This document shows positions 1,052 to 38,172 of a stretch of 38,533 nucleotides of DNA, piece by piece. This DNA comes from a virus (Duplodnaviria; Heunggongvirae; Uroviricota; Caudoviricetes). The notes below the pieces were generated by a model that worked only from the letters and a program-made list of their open reading frames with translations, had not been told where the DNA came from and did no database searches. A program made the position numbers and the translations under genes. The stretch lies in IMG/VR virus record IMGVR_UViG_2531839666_000019, one strand, 5' to 3'. Position 1 is the stretch's first letter; every line of letters starts with the position of its first letter.

Positions 1052-1079
1052 AAGACGAAAACGTTGGTTTGGGGGAAGG
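1052..1079 (+). other. gix/hix-like crossover site A (variable left half, TT core at 1064-1065, conserved right half GGTTTGGGGGAAGG)
   Basis: Sequence GACGAAAACG-TT-GGTTTGGGGGAAGG matches the AAACC-NN-GGTTT architecture of Gin/Hin sites; the same right half recurs at sites B, C and, inverted, D. Confidence 0.7.
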
Positions 1080-1530
1080 CTCTGCACTACCTGTTGGTGT
1101 GCCTGTTCCGTGGCCGTCAGCCACACCGCCAGCAGGGTGGCTGAAATGTAACGGCGCAGCATTTTCTTCTGAAATGTACCCCAGGCTGGCAAAGGCTTAT
1201 CCGACCAATAAATTACCGGATTTACGGGGCGAATTTATCCGTGGCTGGGATGACGGACGAGGTATTGATGCAGGACGAGAGATACTTTCATTTCAGGAAG
1301 GCACTATCGTCTCCGGTTTTGATGATAATGATACTGGGGATATCAGTTCACTCAGCTCAACACAATACGGATTTGGTGACACTTTAACCTCTAATCAATG
1401 GGGGGCCATAAATGGCAAAAAGTGGATATTTGATGCATCCAGTAAAGGTGCCCAAAAATATGACTGGTGGGCTTATGTATCAGCTCGTCCGCGTAATATT
1501 GCATTTAATTACATCGTAAGAGCGGCATAG
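1066..1530 (+). CDS. silent alternative tail-fibre C-terminal cassette A (no ATG start; expressed only after inversion)
   Basis: Begins GEGSALPVGVPVPWPSATPPAGWLKCNGAAF, the same sequence that follows site D in the expressed tail fibre; ends with conserved RPRNIAFNYIVRAA; ORF-track start is TTG inside the gix site. Confidence 0.75.
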   Translation, partial: GLGEGSALPVGVPVPWPSATPPAGWLKCNGAAFSSEMYPRLAKAYPTNKLPDLRGEFIRGWDDGRGIDAGREILSFQEGTIVSGFDDNDTGDISSLSSTQYGFGDTLTSNQWGAINGKKWIFDASSKGAQKYDWWAYVSARPRNIAFNYIVRAA

Positions 1531-1551
1531 AAACGTTGGTTTGGGGGAAGG
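1524..1551 (+). other. gix/hix-like crossover site B
   Basis: ATAGAAACG-TT-GGTTTGGGGGAAGG, core at 1536-1537, immediately after the stop codon of cassette A. Confidence 0.7.
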
Positions 1552-1969
1552 CTCTGCACTGCCCGTTGGTGTGCCTGTTCCGTGGCCCTCAGCCACACCG
1601 CCAACAGGCTGGCTGAAATGTAACGGTGCAGTATTTTCTGCTGGGAAGTACCCCAAACTGGCACAGGCTTACCCCACCAATAAATTACCGGATTTACGGG
1701 GCGAATTTATTCGTGGCTGGGATGATGGACGTGGAGTGGACAATGGGCGAGCATTATTAAGCAGGCAGGAGGCTACAAATTTTTCTTATTACGGAGGTAA
1801 TTTCGATATTGGGTCTGGTCATTCAATCAATAACTATGACCAAATCGTTGACAACCAACCTGGATTCTCCCGTTTTTCATTTGCAGGTCCTTCGCGAGGC
1901 GATGGGGTTAATTTTGTGACCATTCGTCCTCGTAATATTGCGTTTAATTACATCGTAAGGGCAGCATGA
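1538..1969 (+). CDS. silent alternative tail-fibre C-terminal cassette B
   Basis: Same conserved N-terminal block and C-terminal RPRNIAFNYIVRAA with a different central region; starts in gix site B. Confidence 0.75.
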   Translation, partial: GLGEGSALPVGVPVPWPSATPPTGWLKCNGAVFSAGKYPKLAQAYPTNKLPDLRGEFIRGWDDGRGVDNGRALLSRQEATNFSYYGGNFDIGSGHSINNYDQIVDNQPGFSRFSFAGPSRGDGVNFVTIRPRNIAFNYIVRAA

Positions 1970-1990
1970 AAACGTTGGTTTGGGGGAAGG
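1963..1990 (+). other. gix/hix-like crossover site C
   Basis: CATGAAAACG-TT-GGTTTGGGGGAAGG, core at 1975-1976, immediately after the stop codon of cassette B. Confidence 0.7.
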
Positions 1991-2483
1991 CTCTGCACTA
2001 CCTGTTGGTGTGCCTGTTCCGTGGCCGTCAGCCACACCGCCAGCAGGGTGGCTGAAATGTAACGGCGCAGCATTTTCTTCTGAAATGTACCCCTGGCTGG
2101 CAAAGGCTTATCCGACCAATAAATTACCGGATTTACGGGGCGAATTTATCCGTGGCTGGGATGACGGACGGGGAATTGATTCAGGGCGTTTCTTGCTTAA
2201 TGCACAACCACATTCGGTTATGGATCATACTCACTATATGGAGTTATGGACCGGTGAAGGGCTTGCTGCAAACAGCACCCGTGCAGGAACAAACCCTGGT
2301 ATACTGGCTACATACGGTGATGGCGGGATTGTTAAAACAGATGAGTCAGGTGTAAAAGTTCCATCTTCACTACGTGCTATTGGCACTCGTGGTGTTTATA
2401 GATTAGGTGCCAACGGAGGGAATACAGGAACGGAAAACCGCCCCCGTAATATTGCGTTTAACTATATTGTAAGGGCTACTTAA
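1977..2483 (+). CDS. silent alternative tail-fibre C-terminal cassette C
   Basis: Same conserved block (about 125 bp identical to the expressed copy) and C-terminal motif; stop overlaps the tfa start (TAATG at 2481-2485). Confidence 0.75.
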   Translation, partial: GLGEGSALPVGVPVPWPSATPPAGWLKCNGAAFSSEMYPWLAKAYPTNKLPDLRGEFIRGWDDGRGIDSGRFLLNAQPHSVMDHTHYMELWTGEGLAANSTRAGTNPGILATYGDGGIVKTDESGVKVPSSLRAIGTRGVYRLGANGGNTGTENRPRNIAFNYIVRAT

Positions 2484-3100
2484 TGAATAATGCTGCTGCA
2501 GTACTTGATCAGAATGGTATCGCTATAACTGCAGGCGATATTACCGTTTATAACTACGATGCTGAAAACCGTGAATATCTCTCTGCCACTGTTGAATATC
2601 TCGCTTATGGTGTTGGAATTCCGGCTCACTCATGCATTGACGCGCCACCAGAAAAACGCCCCGGCTTCGCTGTCTGTCGTGATACCGACCAGAACATCTG
2701 GAAATATGTTCCAGACCACAGAGGCGAAACGGTTTACAGCACAGAGAATGGTAACGCTGTGCAAATCACACAGCCGGGAGATTACCCTTCAGATACGACG
2801 GTGAAACAGCCAGCTACCATCTATGATGTCTGGGATGGTGAGACCTGGGTGACAGATACGAGACGACAGCACGCAGCAGAACTGGAAGCTGCCGGAGCGC
2901 ATCGTCAGCAACTTGAGGAACAGGCAATGGCATCTGTTGAGCTTATTAATCTCAAACTACGAGCCGGACGCCGATTGACGCCCCAGGAGACGGAAAAACT
3001 AAACGCCGTGCTTGATTTCATAGATGCGCTTAATGCGACTGACATCAGCACTGCACCGGATATCAACTGGCCGGAAATGCCTCTGGCAGCAGCCAGTTGA
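2483..3100 (+). CDS. tail fibre assembly protein (Tfa/U-like chaperone)
   Basis: 205-aa protein with the typical Tfa N-terminal region; lies directly downstream of cassette C and converges on the expressed tail fibre. Confidence 0.75.
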   Translation: MNNAAAVLDQNGIAITAGDITVYNYDAENREYLSATVEYLAYGVGIPAHSCIDAPPEKRPGFAVCRDTDQNIWKYVPDHRGETVYSTENGNAVQITQPGDYPSDTTVKQPATIYDVWDGETWVTDTRRQHAAELEAAGAHRQQLEEQAMASVELINLKLRAGRRLTPQETEKLNAVLDFIDALNATDISTAPDINWPEMPLAAAS

Positions 3101-3106
3101 GTATAA

Positions 3107-4075
3107 TTAAGCCGCCCTCACGATATAGTTAAATGCAATATTGCGGGGGCGAGTTTCACTACCACCAGTGTTACCAATACTTCCTCGTGAATGAAGCGTT
3201 GGTGATGGAATCAAACTCCCTCCTGTATTTGCAGCATCAAGTCCCCGGCCTTGTGAATATGTTTTTTTGAAAATTGTGGCCAACTCCCATTCATCCTTTG
3301 TGTCATACCCATCGTTAGCTACAACAATATGGCGGTGTTTTTCCAGCATCCCAGTTTGAAAGCTCAATAAAGCACGTCCTGCATCAATCCCTCGCCCGTC
3401 ATCCCAGCCACGGATAAATTCGCCCCGTAAATCCGGTAATTTATTGGTCGGATAAGCCTTTGCCAGCCAGGGGTACATTTCAGAAGAAAATGCTGCGCCG
3501 TTACATTTCAGCCACCCTGCTGGTGGTGTTGCTGAGGGCCACGGAACGGGCACACCAACGGGCAGCGCAGAGCCTTCCCCCAAACCAAGGTTTTTGACAA
3601 ACAGCGCAGGATCAGGAATATCTGCGCCGTTCTGGTCTTTAGCCAGCTTTTCCGCCAGCTTGTTCAGTACCGTAGTCGCAAAGTTTGGATCATTACCGAG
3701 AGCGTCAGCCAGCTCTTTAAGCGTATCCAGTGTCTCAGGGGCGCTGCCTGCAAGCGCCGCAAGTGCTTTGGCCACAAACTCCGTCGTCGCCAGCTTTTTG
3801 CTGTTATCGCCATTTGCAGGTGTAGGTGCTGTTGGTGTGCCGGTGAATGCCGGACTGGCTTTCGGTGCATACTGGGCATGCGGGTCTGCTGCCGCGATGT
3901 GTTTCGCAAGGTCAGCCCCGCCTTTTTCAACCTGTTGCTTCAGGTACAGCGTGCGGCTGGCCAGTTGTTTACCCTGACGGTTAGAAATTCCGTCAGGCCC
4001 GCCCAGAACGGGGTCAGAGACCTCAATCTGGTAGATGCCGTCTTCCCACTGTGGGGTTTCAGGTAGATTTGCCAT
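3107..4075 (-). CDS. tail fibre protein (constant N-terminal part plus currently expressed variable C-terminal cassette D, 3107-3586)
   Basis: 322-aa protein; N-terminal tail-fibre region followed after site D by the GEGSALPVGV block and the RPRNIAFNYIVRAA terminus. Confidence 0.85.
   Translation of the reverse strand: MANLPETPQWEDGIYQIEVSDPVLGGPDGISNRQGKQLASRTLYLKQQVEKGGADLAKHIAAADPHAQYAPKASPAFTGTPTAPTPANGDNSKKLATTEFVAKALAALAGSAPETLDTLKELADALGNDPNFATTVLNKLAEKLAKDQNGADIPDPALFVKNLGLGEGSALPVGVPVPWPSATPPAGWLKCNGAAFSSEMYPWLAKAYPTNKLPDLRGEFIRGWDDGRGIDAGRALLSFQTGMLEKHRHIVVANDGYDTKDEWELATIFKKTYSQGRGLDAANTGGSLIPSPTLHSRGSIGNTGGSETRPRNIAFNYIVRAA
3573..3600 (-). other. gix/hix-like crossover site D, inverted relative to A-C, inside the expressed tail-fibre gene
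   Basis: Plus strand reads CCTTCCCCCAAACC-AA-GGTTTTTGACAA, a near-palindrome resembling hixL; core at 3587-3588; encodes FVKNLGLGEG of the tail fibre. Confidence 0.75.
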
Positions 4076-8985: not shown

Positions 8986-9866
8986 ACACTCCTCGTCAGT
9001 ATTCTGGCGGCCATTGCACTTAATCCCGGAGACATGCGGTTGAATGCTGTGCCGGCGGCGTTAAGCTGCCCGGAAACGGTATCCAGAGCACCTGCAATAT
9101 TTCTTTTGTCCACACCACTCAGCGCCGACTGCGCCTGCTGTACATACGTGGCTGCCTCACTGGCTGTTCTGGCCAGACTGATGGCATCGGGCATGGATTC
9201 AGAGAGTACATTAAACGCCGGAATACTTTTCCCCAGAGCGCCGGATATATTACCCAGTCCGCTCATCAGTCCCGGCACACGGGTCAGCGCGACAACGGGG
9301 TTACCCTTCATTTTCTGCGCCACCCGAACGGCACTGATGGTGGTCTGGAGTACAGACTGCGCCTGTTTCGCATAGTTGACGCCGTTACGGACGAACTGCG
9401 CCACCCCGGAAGGCGATGGAACAGCACCAGATATGGCCCCGGCACCGGGAACCTGCCTGCGTATTGCCGGCGGTTGCAGAGGATTTTTCGGGTCACCGGT
9501 GTATTCCCGGAGAGACACGGTGGCACTGACAGCCAGCACGTTACCGGTGCTGTCTGTCTGCTCGCTGGTTGCGGTCACATCGGTAATCACGAACCAGCCG
9601 CGATAGTCACCGTTGCCGAAGACCAGCGCCAGTGCCTGATGGGCCTTCATGGCAGTTCGCACTCTCGCCAGCTCCACGTCGGGCACACAATAATGCTGAT
9701 GGAAGACCAGGCTTATCTGGATTTCGTCCAGCCTGTCGCCGACGAACTGCAGGCCGGGTTTACCCTCGATGCGGGCATGCTCCGCATAATCGACGCCAAA
9801 CGTGGCCTCGAAGCCGTCCCAGTAGGTAATCAGTTCAAACTCAATATCACCCAGTACGGCAAACAT
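8982..9866 (-). CDS. tail protein, Mu gp43-like (DNA circularisation protein N-terminal family)
   Basis: 294-aa ORF directly downstream of the tape measure gene. Confidence 0.6.
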   Translation of the reverse strand: MFAVLGDIEFELITYWDGFEATFGVDYAEHARIEGKPGLQFVGDRLDEIQISLVFHQHYCVPDVELARVRTAMKAHQALALVFGNGDYRGWFVITDVTATSEQTDSTGNVLAVSATVSLREYTGDPKNPLQPPAIRRQVPGAGAISGAVPSPSGVAQFVRNGVNYAKQAQSVLQTTISAVRVAQKMKGNPVVALTRVPGLMSGLGNISGALGKSIPAFNVLSESMPDAISLARTASEAATYVQQAQSALSGVDKRNIAGALDTVSGQLNAAGTAFNRMSPGLSAMAARILTRSV

Positions 9867-12332
9867 CAGCTGTACTCCTTACGTTGTTTCTGAGCCAGCA
9901 GACGCTCCAGCATTTTTTCCAGCTCATGCAGGCTCATATTCAGGGCACCAGCCAGCCCGGCAGGCGCTGCGGTTTCCTTACCATTGAGGAAAAACTGAGG
10001 ATTAAAGCTGACCTGGATACCGCCAGACGCTCCACCGCCGGTTGCAGTTGCGCCACGGCCTGAATATCCGGCAGCCATGATTTCCGGCGACGGGATACGG
10101 GGAACATCCGGTGTCATTTCAGCGGCCAGGCGCTGCCCGGCCAGTGCAGCAAGCGGAGTGGTCCGTTGCAGGCCAATGGCGGCACCCTGCGCGATATTGT
10201 CACCAAAGCCTATAAACACGCGACTCGGTGAATGGATGCCCAGCTTTTCGCTGAACCAGTCACTGATGCTGTCACCCATTCCGGTTATGCTGGTTTTCAG
10301 TGACGCCCATTTGTTTCTGATGCCATTTATCAGCCCGTCAATAAGATGACCACCGAAGTCGGTGAATTTCGCCGGCAAATCAACGCCGAGATATTTCAGC
10401 GCAGCCGCAAAGGCTTTATAAAGCAGACCTGCCGGAGACCAGTTAACCAGCAGTTTACCAATTCCCGCGATGCCGCCGTTAAAGGCTTCCTGAATGTCAG
10501 CCCAGCGCTGTTTAAACCAGCTACTGACAGCGCCCCAGTTGCGGTAGATAAGGTAAGCTGCTGCCGCGACGGCGGTGATAACGAGACCGATGGGATTCAT
10601 CAGCAGCGCCCGGCCAATCCAGAGAACGGCACGCCCGGCGCTCATAATTCCGCGAACCAGCCCCCCTGAGAGCACCCCCCCACGTCGTTCTGGTTCCTCT
10701 GGCGACGGCACCAAAGCCTGTCACCAGCCAGCGGAGTTTACCGCCTTCCCCCAGTGCGAGCATCAGACGAAGCCAGTTGGCCCGAAGTAAAACAGCATTT
10801 TTCCAGACGCTTACAAAGGGGGAAATAAGGAGATTCAGCCCAAACTTGAGACCGATAGTGGCCATCCTGAAAGCGAGTAATGCGCCCACAACCTTTATGG
10901 TGCTGCTGACGAGCTGCGGATTTGCCGCTATCCATTTGCCGACGCTGTCCATTAAAGGAATAAATGTTTCACCCAACTGGAGCAAAGCCGGACGCAAGGA
11001 TTGCCCGATGCTGATAGCAGAATCATTAAAGCCGATCTGCATTCTGCGCCAGCGACCTTCAAGCGTATCATTCTGCTTTGCAGCATCCTTATCCAGGGTA
11101 GACATTGCAGCCGGAGCATTCATTTCCTGCTTACTGGAAAGGTATTTATCCCAGCCCTGTCGCATTGACAGTAAATGGTTGACAGTCTGAATATCGGTAA
11201 AGACCTCAGCCAGACCAAATGACTCCATGAGTTTCTGCTGACCTTCCTGATCGCCTCTTGCTCCTGCAGCTTTCCATTGCTGCAAAAACGCTTTGCCTTT
11301 ACTGTCGATAAAACGGTTGGCAATCATCAGTGAAGCTTCGTACTGCGAAAAACCCTGAGCGACGTAATTCTGCATTGACCCCTGGTAATCCACCCCGGCT
11401 TTAGCATATTTCTGGATGGTATCTCCGCGGCCCATTGCTGCCAGCCAGTTGGACATATTGGTGACCGCTTCCTCTGCAGAGCCACTACCTTTACCGACCT
11501 CCAGACTGGCAACAATCTGGGTAATCGCATCTTTTCCATAAATACCACGAGCAGCGAAGGCTTTCGCCATACCGGGTAATGCTTTTGCCATATCCTTCAG
11601 CTCAAATGACCCAAGTTTGGCTCCTGTTGCCGCAATGCCAAACGCCTGTTCAAGTTCTTTCGCATCAGTGATTCTGAGTGCATCGCTGAAGGCATAAGTC
11701 ATTTTGGCAAGGTCGGTCATATCGGCTTTGGTTGCTGTAGCGGTCTTTCCAAGCATCTCTGCAAACGTTGCTGCCCGTTCGGGGGCCATACCATCAGCAA
11801 CTAATTGTCCGACTCCCCCTAACAGAGACTCCTGCAGTTGGTTAACCTTCAGCGAGGCCTGTCTGATAGCCAGGCCAATTGCACGTTCCTGTTTTGCATC
11901 CAGGTCTCCTGTGACACTGATATCCCGCAACTGTGATTCAAACGAGGCATATTGTTTAACCGAGGCCATGACCGGTGCGCCCAGCGTTCTGCCAATAGCA
12001 TAGGTTTCTGCACCCTGACCATAGAGCGCCAGGCGGTTAGCCTTCAACGCATCACCGGTGGCTGATACTGCTGACAGACGGCGCTGCTGACGTTCAATTT
12101 GCTCCATGGTGCGGCTTACCCGCAGCAACTCGCTGTTGAGATGCTGCATCCGGGAAGAACCCAGTTGACCATAACGTTCTGTTGCCCGGGTTAAGGCATT
12201 CTGGCGTTCCTGCAGACGGCGGGAGGTATCACCAAGGGAATCAAGGGCGCGTCGGGTGCCACTGACGGCTGAGCGGAAGCTGCTCCCGACAATGCCGCCA
12301 ATAATGACGCCGACTGAAAATTCACTGGCCAC
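9866..12332 (-). CDS. tail tape measure protein, reading frame broken within 10661-10681 (two ORFs 10521-12332 and 9866-10714)
   Basis: 603-aa plus 282-aa overlapping ORFs; coiled-coil-rich N part and hydrophobic segment LVRGIMSAGRAVLWIGRALLMNPIGLVITAVAAAAYLIY; removing one G from the G7 run (or the adjacent G6 run) joins the frames. Confidence 0.8.
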
Positions 12333-12424: not shown

Positions 12425-12848
12425 TTACTGATTGTCGCCGAACTCGCTTTTGATTTGCTCTTCAGCCTGCTCCAGCCACATCTCCAGATCGTCAGTATCG
12501 AGGGCATCAATCTCCCCCGGCTGAAACCTGAACCATCTCGCCAGCAGGCCCTGCGCCTGCATCAGTGTTTTTGTCGCTCTTGCCCAGCCCAGTGATTTTC
12601 TGAAATCGTTTCTGCAGCTCCATATAGTCGGCAAGATCCATGTTATCGAGGTCTTCCGGGAGGATACCGGTGCTACGGGCAATCAGTGGTTCGTCCCAGT
12701 CTGCCGGGTCTTTGTTGATTTTGCGCACCTGCTTCAGGTCTTTTACTGTCAGGCGTTTCAGTTCAATCTGTTCAATTCTGGTACCTGCAGCAGTGGTGAA
12801 AGGATAAGACAGCGTAAAAGTATCGGACTGGGTCTGTGACATGATCAT
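12425..12848 (-). CDS. tail assembly chaperone (113-aa product 12507-12848) with a +1-frame 27-codon extension to 12425
   Basis: Position between tube and tape measure genes; second frame has an acidic C-terminus EIDALDTDDLEMWLEQAEEQIKSEFGDNQ; frames meet at a G5 run (plus-strand C5 at 12514-12518). Confidence 0.6.
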
Positions 12849-20233: not shown

Positions 20234-21727
20234 TCAGCCGTTGTCACGCTCATGCAGACGCCCCCAGATATTTGCCACAAAGAGAATGCGGGCCAGCCGC
20301 TCCTGCAGATCGTCCGTGTTCATCTGAGGGTAGAGCTCCGCCAGTTCGCCCAGCAGCTCAGACGGGTTAACCCCGTTTTCGACCCGCCTGAACAGAGGTG
20401 CCAGGACGGGTTCCAGCGTGCCATTTAACACACCTCCGTTCATCAGAATGTCCAGCGCGTCGTCAAGCTGCTGTTGTGCATCATGATCGGCGCTTATCGC
20501 CTCGGCAAACTCCGCAGGCACTGCCCCGTCCGCAACCGGTGCATCAGAGAGGTCAATATCCCCCTCCTGCAGCTGGTACTCCCGCATGAAGTACTGCGGG
20601 GTCAGGCGTAGTCCCGCGCGGGTGAGTTTTTCGTCGCGGGTGGCACGGGTGTCATCAATGGCCTCCTGTTCCCACATGGCCCAGACCGGACACGGCACAT
20701 CGCCGAAGTTCAGGGTGACCACCGTTCTGATGACCTGATTCACTGCCGCCTGAATGATGTCCGCATCCGCATCGCGGATATCAGCCGTCACCTCCAGCCC
20801 GGCCTGTGCAGAGGCCTTGTTACTGTTCGCTTCCGTGGTCTGATTCTGACCGAGTAATGCAATGGAGATCTCACTGCGTGACAGCGTGATCAGCTCGCGG
20901 AATACCTCGCTGCTGTCCGCCTTGCCATCCGCGGCTTTGAGTTCAATGCTGCTGTCATCGGGGATGGCGGCCACAGCGTCCTCCACCATCTGCTCCATGG
21001 AGTCCAGCAGTTTTTCAATCTCTGCATCATTTGCACCCCTCGGGTGCTTACCGATCACCCACGGGGAGCCAAACTTTTCGGCAAAGCGGAGCCAGAATTT
21101 CATCCCGCCTTTCTTGAAGGCGACCGGCCAGAAGCACATGGACAGGTCCGGGAAACCGTAAGGATTGTCATACGAGGCATCCTGTGCCGGCACCACGAAT
21201 TTTGACGGTGACAGCAGCTCACCCTCCACACCCGCATCACGCGCCCGGAAGCGCAGGCAGTTGTCCGTATCAAACTGAAACCACTCAGGCGGTTTGCCGA
21301 CAATATCCGTCACCGCCCACGCCCTGACCGAACGGCCCCACATGATTTCACAGGGCTGATACCCGTAGAGCACGGCATCGCTCATCTCACCGATGATGCG
21401 GGACAGATCCAGATCGTCGAGCATGTCGCGGATGAAACGGAAGACCCGGGCAGAAGCGTGACCGCGCTCCAGTCCACGCTCCAGCGATTTGAGCGCTGCT
21501 TTACGTCTGCGGATACAGCCTCCGACCAGCGGGTCGGTGCGCAGTTCGCGGTAGATACGGATATCCCGTCCCTGAGCCTTGAGAATGGGATCAGGATTGG
21601 GCAGATACATGCCCAGTCCGTAAAAGTCGATCGCGCGGCTGCGGGAGGCAATCTGCGCGGTCAGTGATTTCTGAGGCTCAGAAAAAGCAACAAATTCATC
21701 GGGTGAAACCCAGATACCCCTCGCCAT
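20234..21727 (-). CDS. portal protein (Mu gp29-like, DUF935-like)
   Basis: 497-aa ORF directly after the terminase large subunit, typical size. Confidence 0.8.
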   Translation of the reverse strand: MARGIWVSPDEFVAFSEPQKSLTAQIASRSRAIDFYGLGMYLPNPDPILKAQGRDIRIYRELRTDPLVGGCIRRRKAALKSLERGLERGHASARVFRFIRDMLDDLDLSRIIGEMSDAVLYGYQPCEIMWGRSVRAWAVTDIVGKPPEWFQFDTDNCLRFRARDAGVEGELLSPSKFVVPAQDASYDNPYGFPDLSMCFWPVAFKKGGMKFWLRFAEKFGSPWVIGKHPRGANDAEIEKLLDSMEQMVEDAVAAIPDDSSIELKAADGKADSSEVFRELITLSRSEISIALLGQNQTTEANSNKASAQAGLEVTADIRDADADIIQAAVNQVIRTVVTLNFGDVPCPVWAMWEQEAIDDTRATRDEKLTRAGLRLTPQYFMREYQLQEGDIDLSDAPVADGAVPAEFAEAISADHDAQQQLDDALDILMNGGVLNGTLEPVLAPLFRRVENGVNPSELLGELAELYPQMNTDDLQERLARILFVANIWGRLHERDNG

Positions 21728-23321
21728 CAGAATCCCTCCAGCATACGGGCCGCCTGACGACGACGGCGTGAGCTTGCCTTCACCGGCCCTTTGTTAATTT
21801 CACGGCTGGCGAAATACGCCAGCGCCAGTGCGATGGCTGAATCCCCGTGGCGTTTACCACCGTCAGCCTTTGCTTTTGAGCGTTGCTCCGGTACGCGGGG
21901 GACACCGTTCACCACCTGAACGGCCCGCAGGTCATCCAGTGTGTCTTCATCCTTTGGTAAGTCCACCAGGTTACCGTCTTCCAGTGCAGCTTTGACCGGA
22001 GGCATATGCTCCCTGTACCAGCCTTCGGTTGGCATCACCTGCTGAATCCGGCTGGAGCCGTAGCGCTGCATGGCGTATTCAGCCAGATAGGCACCATTAC
22101 CACGGGCATCAAACGCTGCACCCAGCAGACCGGGCAGGCCATCCATCAGATACCAGGTGATTTGCTCCTGCTGTCTGAACGGCACGTTACGCAGCTCCAG
22201 TACGAATGGCACGCGTCGTACCAGGTTCTTCTCCTGCAGCAGGGGATAGTCCACCGACAAATCACCGCTACGGCCAAAGTCGCGCCCCAGGAAAGAGCGG
22301 GCATCAGTGGGGAGTGCCTCCAGCAATGGTTTCAGATACTCATCAAGCCAGTCCTGCGTCTCGCGGAAGCGAACCTCATCAGACAGCAGTTCATAACCTT
22401 CCTTGCAGGTCAGACGCAATACCGGCGTATCAGCGGACATGCGGGACTCTATCAGGGCACGGGACAGCCAGGCACCGCCACCGTTGGCCGGAATACAGTC
22501 AAGCTCTTCGGATGCGCCGGCACCGTAGAATTTGTACACCGATGCCATCCAGGCCTGCTCGGAGGCCTCCGACCATTCCTTCCCGGTGCGCAGACAGACG
22601 CGCCGGAACAGCCCCTCAGATACGGCTTCCCGGAAAGTGATGCGATGTATGCTGCCTCCCTGACGTCCGGCACGGATATCCCCGATAAGCGTATTGAACG
22701 GATTGTCGTCACCGTTATGGGTGGAGATAACGTGTACCTTCCCCCCCAGATAAGCATCGCCAGCGCCGCTTTCAGCAGTTCGTCCAGTTGCTCATGGAAC
22801 GCCGCTTCGTCGATAACAATAATACCCTGACGGCCACGCAGGTTAGACGGGCGGCTGGAGAGCGCAACAATACGAAAGCCGGAGTCAGGAAATTTGATGG
22901 TGTAAGTCCTGATGTGTTTGTCGTCGTCGTCCTCTTCCCAGAATCCTTCTTCAATTTCACTGGCCGCATAGTTGAATGCCCGTGCCCACATCGCACACGC
23001 CTGAATGTATTCGACGGTCATGTCTTGGTTATAAGCGATGTAATACACATTCATCCCGCCTGCTGGCGCAGAAGAGGCGGCGGTCAGTACGTTATCGGAT
23101 GCCTCAGCCCATGTAATACCGGTACGACGGCTCTTTTCTATCACCTTAAGCGGAGAGGTGTCTGCCACCCAGCGCTGCTGGTAAGGCAACAGAACGGGAG
23201 GGGCATCCAGCGCCGAGGTATCAGGCAAAACGGGAGCAAGGTTATTCCTCCCGTCCATGGGACTCATCCCTTCGGGGCCGCCGCCAGCGGCGTTTAAAAT
23301 CACTCCGGATGATTTTGTCAT
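21727..23321 (-). CDS. terminase large subunit (Mu gp28-like), frame broken at a G7 run (plus-strand C7 at 22741-22747)
   Basis: Two overlapping ORFs (22452-23321 and 21727-22548); adding one G to the run gives a continuous protein of about 531 aa through WGGKVHVISTHNGDDNPFNTLIGDIRAGRQGGSIHRITF. Confidence 0.8.
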
Positions 23322-23863
23322 GTGGCAATCCCCAGAATCTCGCGACGAAGCGCCTGTACTGCGTCGCTTGACAGTCCGCCCTTACGGGCAATTTTCTCTG
23401 CGTTGCTGGCTGCCTGCTGCGCTCTGGCCCGCACTTCAGACTGGAACTTTTTGAGGTTGACGGACGCGCGTGACAGCGTAGCCACATTCTTCGCCACCTT
23501 CGACAGCAGGGCCACGCGTTCTTTAGGATCGACTTCGCCTTCTTCCGCCTCCTGCAACTGGACAATACTCTCGAACAGCTCGGTCTGAATAAGGGCTATC
23601 ACAGCCTCCGAACGCGCATCCTGATCGTCTGCTGCGCCTTCGGTCAGCATGCGGGCCGCTTCTGTCGCCGCACGGATAGCACCATAGCGGCGCTCAATCT
23701 TCTGTCCATAGCGATGGATAGCGGATTTGCTGATGACGTATCCCCGCTCACGCAGCAGGGACTCCAGCTCGTTATACCCGCTGAAGCCGGATTCAGTCAG
23801 CGCCCGTTCAAGCCAGCGGCGCACGTCTTCCGGCAGCTTTTCTATTGTGCTGCGTCTGGCCAT
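23318..23863 (-). CDS. terminase small subunit-like protein (Mu gp27-like, DUF3486-like)
   Basis: 181-aa ORF immediately upstream of the large subunit, with a 4-bp overlap. Confidence 0.6.
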   Translation of the reverse strand: MARRSTIEKLPEDVRRWLERALTESGFSGYNELESLLRERGYVISKSAIHRYGQKIERRYGAIRAATEAARMLTEGAADDQDARSEAVIALIQTELFESIVQLQEAEEGEVDPKERVALLSKVAKNVATLSRASVNLKKFQSEVRARAQQAASNAEKIARKGGLSSDAVQALRREILGIAT

Positions 23864-27153: not shown

Positions 27154-27561
27154 TCAGAAAACAATCCTTATCGAACAAACACTGCACGTAGGTAATGCAT
27201 CCAGTAAATCGCGTTAATAGAAATCATGTATCTCAAAACTTCACTCTGAACTCTGACAGTGAAAGAACGACCAGCCCGGTACCCGAACTCCGGGCTGGTC
27301 ATCGCCCCACAGGAATGCACTGTGAGCCGACCGAGGTTCAGTCAGTCTCGCGAGACCAGACTAGCCTGCCATATTTTTATAATTATAAAAGGGTTACAGA
27401 TTATGAAAATGCAGACATTCCCCATCGCTCCATGGATTGGTTGTAAACGCCGCCATGCCAGACATATTCTGGCCGATGTTTCCTAGCACGCACGAATATG
27501 AGGCAACTGACGAGAATAAATGATGCGTCAGAATGAACCGTCGACACCGTGATTTCAGGTT

Positions 27562-28232: not shown

Positions 28233-28269
28233 TTGTTGGTCAAGTAATAGAGCTCTACATGGGGCGGTC
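28233..28269. repeat. 37-bp direct repeat, left copy flanking IS1
   Basis: TTGTTGGTCAAGTAATAGAGCTCTACATGGGGCGGTC, identical to 29038-29074. Confidence 0.9.
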
Positions 28270-28284
28270 GGTAATGACTCCAAC

Positions 28285-28788
28285 TTATTGATAGTGTTTT
28301 ATGTTCAGATAATGCCCGATGACTTTGTCATGCAGCTCCACCGATTTTGAGAACGACAGCGACTTCCGTCCCAGCCGTGCCAGGTGCTGCCTCAGATTCA
28401 GGTTATGCCGCTCAATTCGCTGCGTATATCGCTTGCTGATTACGTGCAGCTTTCCCTTCAGGCGGGATTCATACAGCGGCCAGCCATCCGTCATCCATAT
28501 CACCACGTCAAAGGGTGACAGCAGGCTCATAAGACGCCCCAGCGTCGCCATAGTGCGTTCACCGAATACGTGCGCAACAACCGTCTTCCGGAGCCTGTCA
28601 TACGCGTAAAACAGCCAGCGCTGGCGCGATTTAGCCCCGACATAGCCCCACTGTTCGTCCATTTCAGCGCAGACAATCACATCACTGCCCGGCTGTATGC
28701 GCGAAGTTACCGACTGCGGCCTGAGTTTTTTAAGTGACGTAAAGTCGTGTTGAGGCCAACGCCCATAATGCGGGCTGTTGCCCGGCAT
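28285..28788 (-). CDS. insB: IS1 InsB (transposase reading frame, normally expressed as InsAB by frameshift)
   Basis: 167-aa ORF matching IS1 InsB. Confidence 0.9.
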
Positions 28789-28982
28789 CCAACGCCATTC
28801 ATGGCCATATCAATGATTTTCTGGTACGTACCGGGTTGAGAAGCGGTGTAAGTGAACTGCAGTTGCCATGTTTTACGGCAGTGAGAGCAGAGATAGCGCT
28901 GATGTCCGGCGGTGCTTTTGCCGTTACGCACCACCCCGTCAGTAGCTGAACAGGAGGGACAGCTGATAGAAACAGAAGCCAC
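28707..28982 (-). CDS. insA: IS1 InsA
   Basis: 91-aa protein [40 protein letters not shown]. Confidence 0.95.
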
Positions 28983-29010
28983 TGGAGCACCTCAAAAACA
29001 CCATCATACA

Positions 29011-29985
29011 CTAAATCAGTAAGTTGGCAGCATCACCTTGTTGGTCAAGTAATAGAGCTCTACATGGGGCGGTCAAAACACGGGCATAACGACCATCGGG
29101 GTTTATGTTGATGTAACAAGTTTTCCCTTTAACACCATAAGATTCAGGTATTATTGCCTGTGTAGACACCGTGAATTTAAGGGTATGCCAGCCCGATTTT
29201 TGCTTGTAGCTTGAAACCGAATGGAAATCATCTGAGTACTTATTTAACCCTGGAAACATGCTGCGTAATGCTGGGATGGAATCTTCTATTATTTTGTCGT
29301 TGGTTTTAATGTTAAAAACGCTGGTTTCAGTAGATGCTACTGCTTTAGCATTTCCCCATTTACCAGCGAACACAATCATTCCCACGAAAAATATTGCGAC
29401 AAGAACTAACGCTCCCCCCAACACTACTACATGAGGCTTCCGGCTTCTGGTTGGTACAGTCGCGACTGATTTTGCCCCGCTGTCCGATGGAGGTGATAGA
29501 GTTTTACTCTCATCACGAATATTCAGCAGATCATCAAAATAACCAAACACAGCCTGCAACTGCTCTTTGTCCAGGCCTTTAAGATGGGTTGTACCGAAAT
29601 GCTTCAGACAGTATCTGTCACGGTCAAGACGATACCTAGGGTCAGTAAGCACCATTATTTTGCTGACCAGAAGATTACAGTCCTTCATATTCTGGATCTG
29701 TTGTGCATATCTCTGGAGGATCTCAACCGCACCATGATAATCAGCCGCAGTCATTTCATTAACTGTTTTGGTATTAAGTTTCGTGTGGATCGTCATCCAT
29801 AGTTCGCGCTTACTTTCCCCCAGATCAACCAATTCATCCATCAATCTGTGTAAATCGCGTTTTTGCAGCAACGAAATTGGTTGCTGGGCAGAGGGAAGTA
29901 TGTCAGCAGAATAGTTATGAATGGTAACATCACCGCTGACAACGTTACCCACATCTCCGTTAACTGTTTGCTTCTCTTTACTCAT
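29011..29985 (-). CDS. single-pass membrane protein co-transcribed with the repressor; 3' end replaced by IS1 sequence
   Basis: 324-aa ORF; N-terminal GDVGNVVSGDVTIHNY motif, TM helix VVVLGGALVLVAIFFVGMIVFAG; last 8 codons and stop lie inside IS1; without IS1 the frame would continue leftward to a stop near 28194. Confidence 0.6.
   Translation of the reverse strand: MSKEKQTVNGDVGNVVSGDVTIHNYSADILPSAQQPISLLQKRDLHRLMDELVDLGESKRELWMTIHTKLNTKTVNEMTAADYHGAVEILQRYAQQIQNMKDCNLLVSKIMVLTDPRYRLDRDRYCLKHFGTTHLKGLDKEQLQAVFGYFDDLLNIRDESKTLSPPSDSGAKSVATVPTRSRKPHVVVLGGALVLVAIFFVGMIVFAGKWGNAKAVASTETSVFNIKTNDKIIEDSIPALRSMFPGLNKYSDDFHSVSSYKQKSGWHTLKFTVSTQAIIPESYGVKGKTCYININPDGRYARVLTAPCRALLLDQQGDAANLLI
29038..29074. 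repeat. 37-bp direct repeat, right copy flanking IS1
   Basis: Identical to 28233-28269. Confidence 0.9.
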
Positions 29986-37298: not shown

Positions 37299-37525
37299 TT
37301 ACGCTATCAGGTAACAGCCGGAAATTAAAAGCCTGCCGAATATCTGCCAGATACCTTTTTGCCCGCGCCTTTTTTAAGAACGTCAGGCCGGGGATCACAA
37401 TTGGTGTTATTGCCGGACGCGAACAGGTTGAAAAATACATGTCAGGTGCATGGTGGAATAACGACCCTGTCATTGCTGCCCGTAATATTCATATCAGTTG
37501 GGGGGATATTCAGAATGACTGCTGA
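37295..37525 (+). CDS. hypothetical small protein
   Basis: 76-aa ORF overlapping the previous stop. Confidence 0.35.
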   Translation: MITLSGNSRKLKACRISARYLFARAFFKNVRPGITIGVIAGREQVEKYMSGAWWNNDPVIAARNIHISWGDIQNDC

Positions 37526-37719
37526 ATCTGTTGTATGTGCCATGTTCTGGTATTGTTTTGTCGGTTAGTGTACTGCTGAACTGCACCGCCGTTCAGGGTT
37601 TTATTCACGTTACAGTGGTGCCGGCTACTGGATTAGCTGGTCGGTGATGTTCCTGTGCTGGCCTGTGGCGCTTCCTTTATATGTCGATTATATCGGTGGC
37701 GCAGGTAAAAGGAGCAACG

Positions 37720-38172
37720 ATGATGACTAAACAACGTCTTATCCAGCTCATTCATATTGCCCGTAATGAACTGGGTATGGATGAAGACACCTACCGCCAG
37801 ATGTTACAGGGGCTGACCGGTAAAGCCTCAACCAAAGGAATGGATACCACACAACTAAACTGCGTGCTGGAATCCATGAAAAGGAAAGGCTTTCGCGTTA
37901 AGCCTGCCGGAAAAGCCAGCTCCGGTTTACCGCTGGATAACCATCCGCAGTCCAGGAAAATCCGTGCGCTATGGATTGAAATGGCTGCTGCCGGCATTGT
38001 TCGTGACCGTTCAGAAAATGCATTAGCGCGGTGGATCAAGCGGGAAACGGGCATCAGCGCCCTGCGCTGGCTCAATACTGAACAGGCAAGCAGTGTTATT
38101 GAGAAACTGAAGAAGTGGCAGCGCAGAGCTGCGGGAGTAAAACATGAGCGACCTGAATCAGTTTCGAAGTAA
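37720..38172 (+). CDS. gemA: GemA-like regulatory protein (DUF1018 family)
   Basis: MMTKQRLIQLIHIARNELGMDEDTYRQML pattern; start set at the ATG at 37720, preceded by AAAGGAG. Confidence 0.6.
   Translation: MMTKQRLIQLIHIARNELGMDEDTYRQMLQGLTGKASTKGMDTTQLNCVLESMKRKGFRVKPAGKASSGLPLDNHPQSRKIRALWIEMAAAGIVRDRSENALARWIKRETGISALRWLNTEQASSVIEKLKKWQRRAAGVKHERPESVSK

Follow-up and report, generated by a model that had tools for sequence, protein, structure and literature searches.

The gene for the terminase large subunit of a Mu-like Escherichia coli prophage is written in two overlapping frames, and the question that this locus raises is whether the split reflects a misread base, a genuine inactivating deletion or a site at which the frame is recoded. 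The window, i.e., the whole stretch of DNA that was analyzed, is 38,533 nt long.

Frame break and identity of the gene

The gene lies on the minus strand at 21727..23321 and was assigned as Mu gp28/FluMu gp28-like from its reading frames and a match to the phrog_2 profile. It is 1595 nt long in the window and 1596 nt in intact relatives. Direct translation bore out the original prediction that the terminase occupies two overlapping frames, and the break is located exactly where it had been placed, at a run of seven Gs on the coding strand (plus-strand C7, 22741..22747), where the nearest relatives have eight. The codons at the break are ATC TGG GGG GGA AGG. The upstream ORF (22452..23321, minus strand, 289 aa) comprises 194 native residues (M1-G194) followed by 95 out-of-frame residues, and it holds the Walker A-like motif KSRRTGIT and the Walker B motif IIVIDEAAF. 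The downstream frame (21727..22740, minus strand) encodes K195-F531, including the motif VISTHNG (198-204) and the C-terminal half, and continues in the -1 frame as far as the stop at 21727; its first in-frame start is found only at M259, and the mechanical ORF covers 21727-22548 (273 aa). Restoring an eighth G had been expected to give a protein of about 531 aa; insertion of one G gave a continuous protein of exactly 531 aa, with 100% identity to the intact form in the nearest relatives (P0032, on 557 contigs).

The proposed identity as a terminase large subunit was confirmed by the phrog_2 profile match, which runs through both fragments, and by the position of the gene between Mu gp27-like and Mu portal genes. 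The restored protein matched PHROG phrog_2 ('terminase large subunit') with an E-value of 2.3e-38 over residues 41-519, and the separate fragments matched it with 4.6e-23 (N fragment, residues 40-197 only) and 1.6e-06 (C fragment); the downstream fragment also matched phrog_11208. Pfam Terminase_6N was found at 19.7 bits against a gathering cut-off of 22 (E = 7.4e-4) over residues 61-290, which span the break, and the Pfam search with each fragment alone gave no match. No significant match to a solved structure was obtained in a PDB sequence search with the restored protein. The ATPase motifs, as read from the sequence, follow the usual order: KSRRTGIT (63-70), a deviant Walker A-like motif without the usual lysine, IIVIDEAAF (167-175) and VISTHNG. 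In its profile match over the whole restored protein and in the succession of Walker A-like, Walker B and S-T motifs, the gene resembles the Mu gp28/FluMu gp28 terminases, from which it differs by the missing base and the resulting split between two frames.

The upstream neighbor (23318..23863, minus strand) encodes a Mu gp27-like protein (DUF3486), assigned from a match to PF11985 Phage_Mu_Gp27 in L006-L008, where the gene is identical. The stop codon of this gene and the start codon of the terminase gene overlap in ATGA, and in phage PhiKM the protein is annotated as the terminase small subunit. Downstream, a Mu-type portal protein of 497 aa (DUF935, PF06074 Portal_Mu) is encoded at 20234..21727 on the minus strand. 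Mu-like transposable phages have the same gene order, gp27-like/terminase/Mu-type portal/Mu F-like. The terminase counterpart in the phage isolate PhiKM has 99.4% nucleotide identity and is annotated 'terminase large subunit, Mup28', and the RefSeq label of the intact relatives is only 'hypothetical protein'. When the gene region was scanned for promoters and terminators, nothing exceeded the shuffle expectation.

Since the break sits inside the ATPase domain, between Walker B and VISTHNG, it is a reasonable inference that a phage with the G7 allele as written would be unable to package its DNA.

The G run among relatives, recoding and phase variation

At the position of the run, the nearest relatives carry G8 (TGG GGG GGG AAG), and the majority E. 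coli form has G7 followed by AAA (TGG GGG GGA AAG), with the same heptamer in the same phase and the gene intact. In the distant relatives KP12 and Phi06_2974 B, the run is broken by synonymous codons (TGG GGC GGT). The gene spans 1596 nt in 59 of the 60 E. coli matches listed and 1593 nt in the remaining one. Queries of 81 and 83 nt for the exact G7 or G9 context found neither in 599 complete E. coli genomes, and in an evenly spaced sample from these genomes all 59 full-length rows spanned the in-frame 82 nt. The in-frame length was likewise found in 40/40 viral and metagenome matches; the 37 scorable copies among viral and metagenome sequences were all G7-AAA or G8-AA, with the G8 haplotype in three, and three phage records, including that of the isolated phage PhiKM, are intact. 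On these sequences, an intact terminase is the rule among relatives. In one sub-lineage, the tract was extended to G8 by a synonymous change of GGA to GGG, and variants of this G8 tract by plus or minus one base then recur in public assemblies.

The sequence G-GGG-GGA had been noted to fit formally a -1 slippery heptamer, and it does stand in the X_XXY_YYZ phase. Full-length terminase might then be made from the G7 allele, in a programmed or leaky manner, by -1 frameshifting on G_GGG_GGA or by an RNA polymerase that adds a G. With the heptamer in the correct phase, a -1 slip would yield the exact wild-type W-G-G-K, and small amounts of product might matter if, as is to be expected of a terminase, the enzyme acts catalytically. 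The fit is, however, automatic for any run of at least six identical bases in that phase, and since the same heptamer is also in phase within the intact majority allele, it is a by-product of coding W-G-G. In E. coli, GGGGGGA is at background without a stimulator, giving 0.037% unaided against a background of 0.055%; the IS911 stimulators raise this to 0.22% and the IS3 pseudoknot to 1.07% (PMC4066793 Table S3). As for stimulators at the terminase site, the downstream 101 nt fold no better than shuffled sequences (z = +0.46, with 133/200 shuffles as good), and no SD-like element was found in the 30 nt upstream of the run. Nor is the split conserved, the relatives having single ORFs and the distant ones breaking the run by synonymous codons. 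On these three grounds (an unconserved split, a heptamer at 0.037% unaided and the lack of stimulators), the earlier judgement that a sequencing indel or an inactivating mutation is likelier than -1 recoding holds, and recoding of either kind is considered extremely improbable.

The formal geometry X_XXY_YYZ is common to the terminase site and to the -1 sites of IS1 insAB', IS911, IS3 and dnaX, but those have A- or U-rich A-site codons, stimulators and conserved two-frame genes, none of which is present here. A programmed -1 site was accordingly rejected as a candidate: the slippery heptamer is there, but it is not shift-prone, it is without stimulators and the two-frame layout is not conserved. 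Transcriptional slippage on G7 was set aside as well, since efficient slippage by bacterial RNA polymerase has been documented on runs of 9 A or T and not on G7 (PMC5009743). A literature search for published frameshifts in Mu-like terminases found nothing specific. A real -1 frameshift site does occur elsewhere in the same window, namely the IS1 A6C site at 28723-28733.

Leaky compensation on seven Gs has a precedent in herpes simplex thymidine kinase mutants, where a one-G indel in a 7-G run likewise disrupts a viral gene and a slip restores the frame (PMC5009743). That case differs in involving eukaryotic ribosomes, drug selection and demonstrated residual activity (PMC5009743), while the window gives no sign of selection and its heptamer is at background in E. 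coli.

The tract might also be viewed as a phase-variable contingency tract, i.e., a selected and reversible on/off switch that controls packaging of the prophage. Lengths from G6 to G9 are found on near-identical haplotypes and change faster than point substitutions accumulate, and in the contingency loci of Neisseria, Haemophilus and Campylobacter, too, poly-G tracts lie within ORFs and differ in length from one close relative to the next. Unlike those loci, the tract is not conserved as a homopolymer, being GGC GGT in KP12 and Phi06_2974 B, mostly G7-AAA and only in a minority G8 (3/37), and no off state was detected among finished genomes (599 complete E. coli genomes, by exact contexts and sampled rows). 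Much of the G6-G9 polymorphism is, moreover, confounded with sequencing error, and it is not evident how a switch would benefit either phage or host. As a further difference from the Neisseria, Haemophilus and Campylobacter loci, mismatch repair is intact in E. coli. A selected switch was therefore regarded as the least probable of the explanations weighed. A broader reading, considered very unlikely, is that G7 is real and that the tract either acts as a hypermutable reversible switch or, like that of the herpes simplex thymidine kinase mutants, leaks by occasional slipping on the Gs. In that event, a prophage that annotation marks as packaging-dead would still be able to form infectious particles, at a low level or after reversion, and the G6, G7 and G9 alleles that recur in public assemblies would be biology and not noise.

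Comparison with near-identical prophages

The window is 99.95% identical to the intact prophages L004 and L005. With the invertible tail-fibre segment left out of the count, it differs from each of them by two substitutions, five single-base indel events at three homopolymer sites and one IS1. By these counts, the ratio of indels to substitutions is the reverse of normal divergence. The backbone substitution at 9654 is synonymous. The intact relatives have exactly two 8-base homopolymers in the whole prophage, both of them plus-strand C8, and both are C7 in the window, where all 7-base runs are unchanged. One of the two is the terminase run. At the other (10675..10686, minus strand), comparison with relatives showed C7 followed by ACGTCG where they have C8 followed by AGTG, a net gain of one base that puts the tape measure gene (9866-12332) out of frame. 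The third difference is intergenic (27373..27377), with T5 in the window and T6 in L004, L005, L007-L009 and L011.

The pattern at these sites is the one expected of flow-based reads. As in 454 or Ion Torrent under-calling, the three indel sites of the window are all homopolymers and all run contractions, and the two longest runs are both hit. Simulation with cyclic TACG flows, in which C8 is under-called and the two empty C flows that follow each add one spurious C, reproduced the tape measure sequence of the window, C7-A-C-G-T-C-G, exactly from the C8-A-G-T-G of the relatives, this sequence being one of 862 possible double insertions. The spurious bases thus match the nucleotide of the run and fall at the next two empty TACG flows, as in incomplete extension or carry-over in 454 or Ion Torrent reads. 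For the terminase site, the same flow model predicts a clean change from G8 to G7. Neither of the two tape measure fragments of the window is on record among about 15 billion proteins, so the tape measure allele is private to the source assembly. The tape measure cluster also creates a short palindrome, ACGACGT on the coding strand, which leaves a templated natural mutation as a remote possibility for its origin.

L006 is a separate assembly, of read set SRR063742; over 20.9 kb it shows no substitution relative to the window, and it shares both G7 and T5. Another three single bases are deleted from its short runs T6, G3 and T2, a pattern typical of flow reads. L006 would not be an independent confirmation if it came from the same reads as the window. 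The exact 289-aa product of the upstream ORF was found on four contigs and equals STG03096.1 and EII24492.1, the latter a protein of E. coli 9.0111 from a JCVI draft of about 2011 (WGS project AEZZ, PMC3359367).

Taken together, the frame break is probably a miscall of homopolymer length, G8 having been read as G7 in an assembly from flow-based reads of the 454 or Ion Torrent type. The points that speak for it are the excess of indels over substitutions, the shortening of both 8-base runs, the flow pattern at the tape measure gene and its private allele, the short-run deletions of L006, the match of the 289-aa product in the JCVI draft and the intact state as the rule. The source assembly would thus have used flow chemistry, in which the terminase G8 would be under-called as G7 by the same process as at the tape measure gene. 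The real prophage would then carry an intact 531-aa terminase of the Mu gp28 type, as in hundreds of near-identical prophages.

Against a miscall, G7 was also found in two other assemblies on different haplotypes, the NCTC chromosome UGAM01000005 (L007), with 15 substitutions from the window, and L008 (SRR28250663), with 16, both otherwise free of indels in the compared region. In addition, G9 occurs in clean assemblies on the haplotype of the window itself (L011 and L014), and the 202-aa product of G9 was found on 22 and 16 contigs. Since G7 and G9 occur in otherwise clean assemblies, real slippage mutations at the terminase tract probably exist.

A genuine change from G8 to G7 would have arisen by replication slippage at a mutational hot spot, inactivating the terminase of an already decaying prophage; the lysogen could express other phage functions, without DNA packaging. 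Run length does vary on near-identical haplotypes, with G7 in L007 and L008, G8 in L004, L005 and L009 and G9 in L011-L014, and a G6 allele of the major G7-AAA haplotype is found on about 100 contigs (P0003 on 57, P0004 on 42). Several carriers of variant run lengths are otherwise clean assemblies. Since the IS1 insertion was confirmed in an independent draft, GCA_005045715.1, whose contig ends in IS1, some decay of the prophage lineage is evidently genuine, as a true deletion in an already decaying prophage would have it. Judging from established terminase biology, a true G7 allele would be null, with the break inside the ATPase domain. In contrast, the same window holds an artefact-like change at the one remaining 8-base run and is contracted at a third homopolymer, and no frameshifted allele was detected in the 599 complete RefSeq genomes (exact contexts and sampled rows) or in the 40 viral and metagenome contigs. 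Several carriers of G6 and G6-type alleles (L010, L020, L021, L025 and L026) are assemblies in which many more genes are broken, so the apparent polymorphism in run length is in part error. A genuine deletion is the main rival but less likely, and the miscall remains the preferred reading.

Consequences for prophage annotation and decay

Faulty base calling in a long run of a single nucleotide is thus the most likely source of the frame break, with a plain inactivating mutation as the alternative, and either is preferred over programmed recoding. Where a draft assembly shows the terminase gene split at a homopolymer, neither a defective prophage nor recoding should be concluded before the length of the run is confirmed, a caution that is relevant to tools scoring prophage intactness. 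An internal test for flow-sequencing error is to compare each long run with near-identical genomes and to look for carry-over bases. If the G7 allele is real, it would represent a first step of prophage decay, taken at the site where an essential late gene is most prone to slippage.

The terminase gene and its prophage

An ordinary terminase of the Mu gp28 type is encoded at 21727-23321 (minus strand), with a Mu gp27-like gene (PF11985) on one side and a Mu-type portal gene (PF06074) on the other. The restored product matched PHROG phrog_2 'terminase large subunit' (E=2.3e-38, residues 41-519) through both fragments, the Pfam Terminase_6N match also spanned the break at a score slightly under the cut-off, and in the 99.4% identical phage isolate PhiKM the gene is annotated as terminase large subunit Mup28. 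The coding strand at the break reads ATC TGG GGG GGA AGG, and its run of seven G (G7) is the plus-strand C7 at 22741-22747. Past the break, the zero frame reads 95 wrong codons to give a 289-aa ORF (22452-23321), while native terminase sequence picks up at K195 in the -1 frame, reaching the stop at 21727. Translation of both frames confirmed the original prediction of a gene split at this run. An eighth G had been expected to restore about 531 aa; it gave exactly 531 aa, with 100% identity to the intact protein of one of the nearest relatives, the prophage of E. coli JNEC-KY202 (L004). The intact 531-aa form is on record in 557 contigs, and a 513-aa form with a later start in 702. The break lies within the ATPase domain, between the Walker B motif IIVIDEAAF (167-175) and VISTHNG (198-204).

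The window is a transposable Mu-like prophage, of the E. coli type, and its layout resembles that of BcepMu. The transposase (rve), an AAA+ B-like gene, Gam and Mor are on the plus strand, the lysis, head and tail genes are on the minus strand, and a Gin-like invertase and an invertible tail-fibre segment are at the left end. It is 99.95% identical to the prophages of E. coli JNEC-KY202 and CFIAFB20190167 (L005), where pduO of the propanediol-utilisation operon is interrupted by the prophage; the window starts in a pduO remnant (1-345) and ends at the stop of Mor. The tail-fibre segment (~1057-3594) contains internal inverted repeats and adjoins the Gin-like recombinase. Since 1924-3594 is inverted relative to L004 and collinear with L005, the segment was caught in different orientations across genomes. 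In both relatives, RefSeq marks a small gene of hypothetical product, upstream of gp16/Mor (L004 39417-39632, L005 39320-39535; equivalent to window ~37515-37730), as a pseudogene carrying an internal stop. The tail assembly chaperone gene (PF10109 family, 12507-12848, minus strand) is overlapped by an ORF in the +1 frame (12425-12682, minus), directly upstream of the tape measure gene. In tailed phages, a conserved programmed frameshift is usual at this place; no slippery site was identified.

Homopolymer differences from intact relatives

The window was compared base by base with L004 and L005, leaving out the invertible segment. Against each, it showed 2 substitutions, 5 single-base indel events at 3 homopolymer sites, and one IS1. 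The intact relatives contain exactly two 8-base homopolymers per prophage, both plus-strand C8; both are C7 in the window, with all 7-base runs unaltered. The second affected run (10675-10686) is in the minus-strand tape measure gene (9866-12332), with C7-ACGTCG in place of the relatives' C8-AGTG. At this site, the window's only other C7 run, the tape measure gene is frameshifted, and two ORFs (603 aa and 282 aa) take the place of the 821-aa one. A simulated sequencer with cyclic TACG flows, in which C8 is under-called and the two empty C flows that follow add one spurious C apiece, yielded the window's tape measure sequence exactly (1 outcome among 862 possible double insertions). For the terminase run, this model predicts that G8 turns cleanly into G7. 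Neither tape measure fragment had a record among ~15 billion proteins.

A third homopolymer contraction, intergenic, is found at 27373-27377 (T5, vs T6 in L004, L005, L007-L009 and L011). T5 is shared only by L006, a separate assembly of read set SRR063742 with 0 substitutions vs the window over 20.9 kb, which also has G7 and lacks one further base at each of three short runs. L006 looks like a flow-chemistry assembly of the window's own strain. The 289-aa product is identical to EII24492.1 of E. coli 9.0111, a JCVI draft of ~2011 (PMC3359367).

In every testable respect, the terminase break resembles known flow-sequencing artefacts. Given the indel excess, the two shortened C8 runs, the simulation, the private tape measure fragments, L006 and the EII24492.1 draft, the break was probably caused by a homopolymer miscall, G8 being under-called as G7 in reads from a platform that we infer to be flow-based. 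Most probably, the break is not real in the organism.

Conservation of the G run and recoding

Among the 60 best complete-genome rows, the terminase span is 1596 nt in 59 and 1593 nt in one, vs 1595 nt in the window. Neither the window's 81-nt context nor its G9 version had an exact match in 599 complete genomes (650 copies), and an evenly spaced sample of complete-genome matches had the in-frame 82-nt span in 59/59 full-length rows. A search of IMG/VR and metagenomes with a pattern permitting G6-G9 gave only in-frame lengths (27/27 and 13/13 matches, respectively); the scorable copies were G7-AAA (34/37) or G8-AA (3/37). A synonymous GGA to GGG change gave G8 in the minority haplotype, on which window-type G7 and G9 variants occur. 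In the more distant KP12 and Phi06_2974 B, W-G-G-K is coded as TGG GGC GGT AAA, which breaks the run.

The original prediction, which had ranked a sequencing indel or an inactivating mutation ahead of -1 recoding, was borne out. Recoding at the run was rejected, as the split is not conserved, the heptamer is at background, and neither a fold nor a Shine–Dalgarno-like (SD-like) element accompanies it. Since the majority intact allele (TGG GGG GGA AAG) also carries G_GGG_GGA, with its phase unchanged, the heptamer is a by-product of coding Trp-Gly-Gly. In E. coli, GGGGGGA gave 0.037% frameshifting unstimulated vs a background of 0.055%, 0.22% with IS911 stimulators and 1.07% with the IS3 pseudoknot (Sharma et al., PMC4066793). 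The 101 nt downstream of the run folded no better than shuffles (z = +0.46), and no SD-like element was found upstream. The A6C motif of the window's IS1 (28723-28733, minus strand), a genuine programmed -1 site, shows what the terminase site is without.

A further point against recoding is that efficient slippage by RNA polymerase in bacteria has been described at runs of 9 A or T (PMC5009743). For a non-trivial reading, the closest parallel in biology comes from G-run mutants of herpes simplex thymidine kinase, where frameshifting at the run, though at a very low level, yields some product (PMC5009743). There is no sign here that the terminase run is leaky in this way or that such leakiness is under selection, and a packaging switch based on a reversible or leaky G tract is highly improbable.

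Run-length variants and the IS1 insertion

The main competing explanation for the break is that slippage truly mutated the run, in a prophage which also gained a real IS1. This is less likely but plausible, and several observations speak for it. Two other haplotypes also have G7, L007 (an NCTC chromosome) and L008, and in the compared region neither shows any other indel. G9 is present in L011-L014, its 202-aa product being on 22 + 16 contigs, and G6 on ~100 contigs within the G7-AAA haplotype. Essentially one haplotype carries G7 (window), G8 (L004, L005) and G9 (L011, L014), so the run changes faster than point substitutions accumulate. Part of the variant-run carriers are clean assemblies, whereas L010, L020, L021, L025 and L026 are error-prone, with many broken genes.

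The IS1 is complete (768 bp, 28270-29037, with InsA and InsB Pfam matches), and it is real, as its right junction recurs in the separate draft GCA_005045715.1 (100% identity over 9,575 nt). It is inserted in a 328-aa gene, close to the 3' end; this gene adjoins a repressor-like HTH gene, and the insertion creates a 324-aa fusion ORF (29011-29985). The flanking direct duplication is 37 bp (28233-28269 and 29038-29074), while roughly 9 bp is usual for IS1. The left copy could be an assembly artefact, the draft's confirmation covering the right junction.

Since the break falls inside the ATPase domain, a true G7 allele should, from established terminase biology, be null; if real, the terminase break would be a routine inactivating indel.
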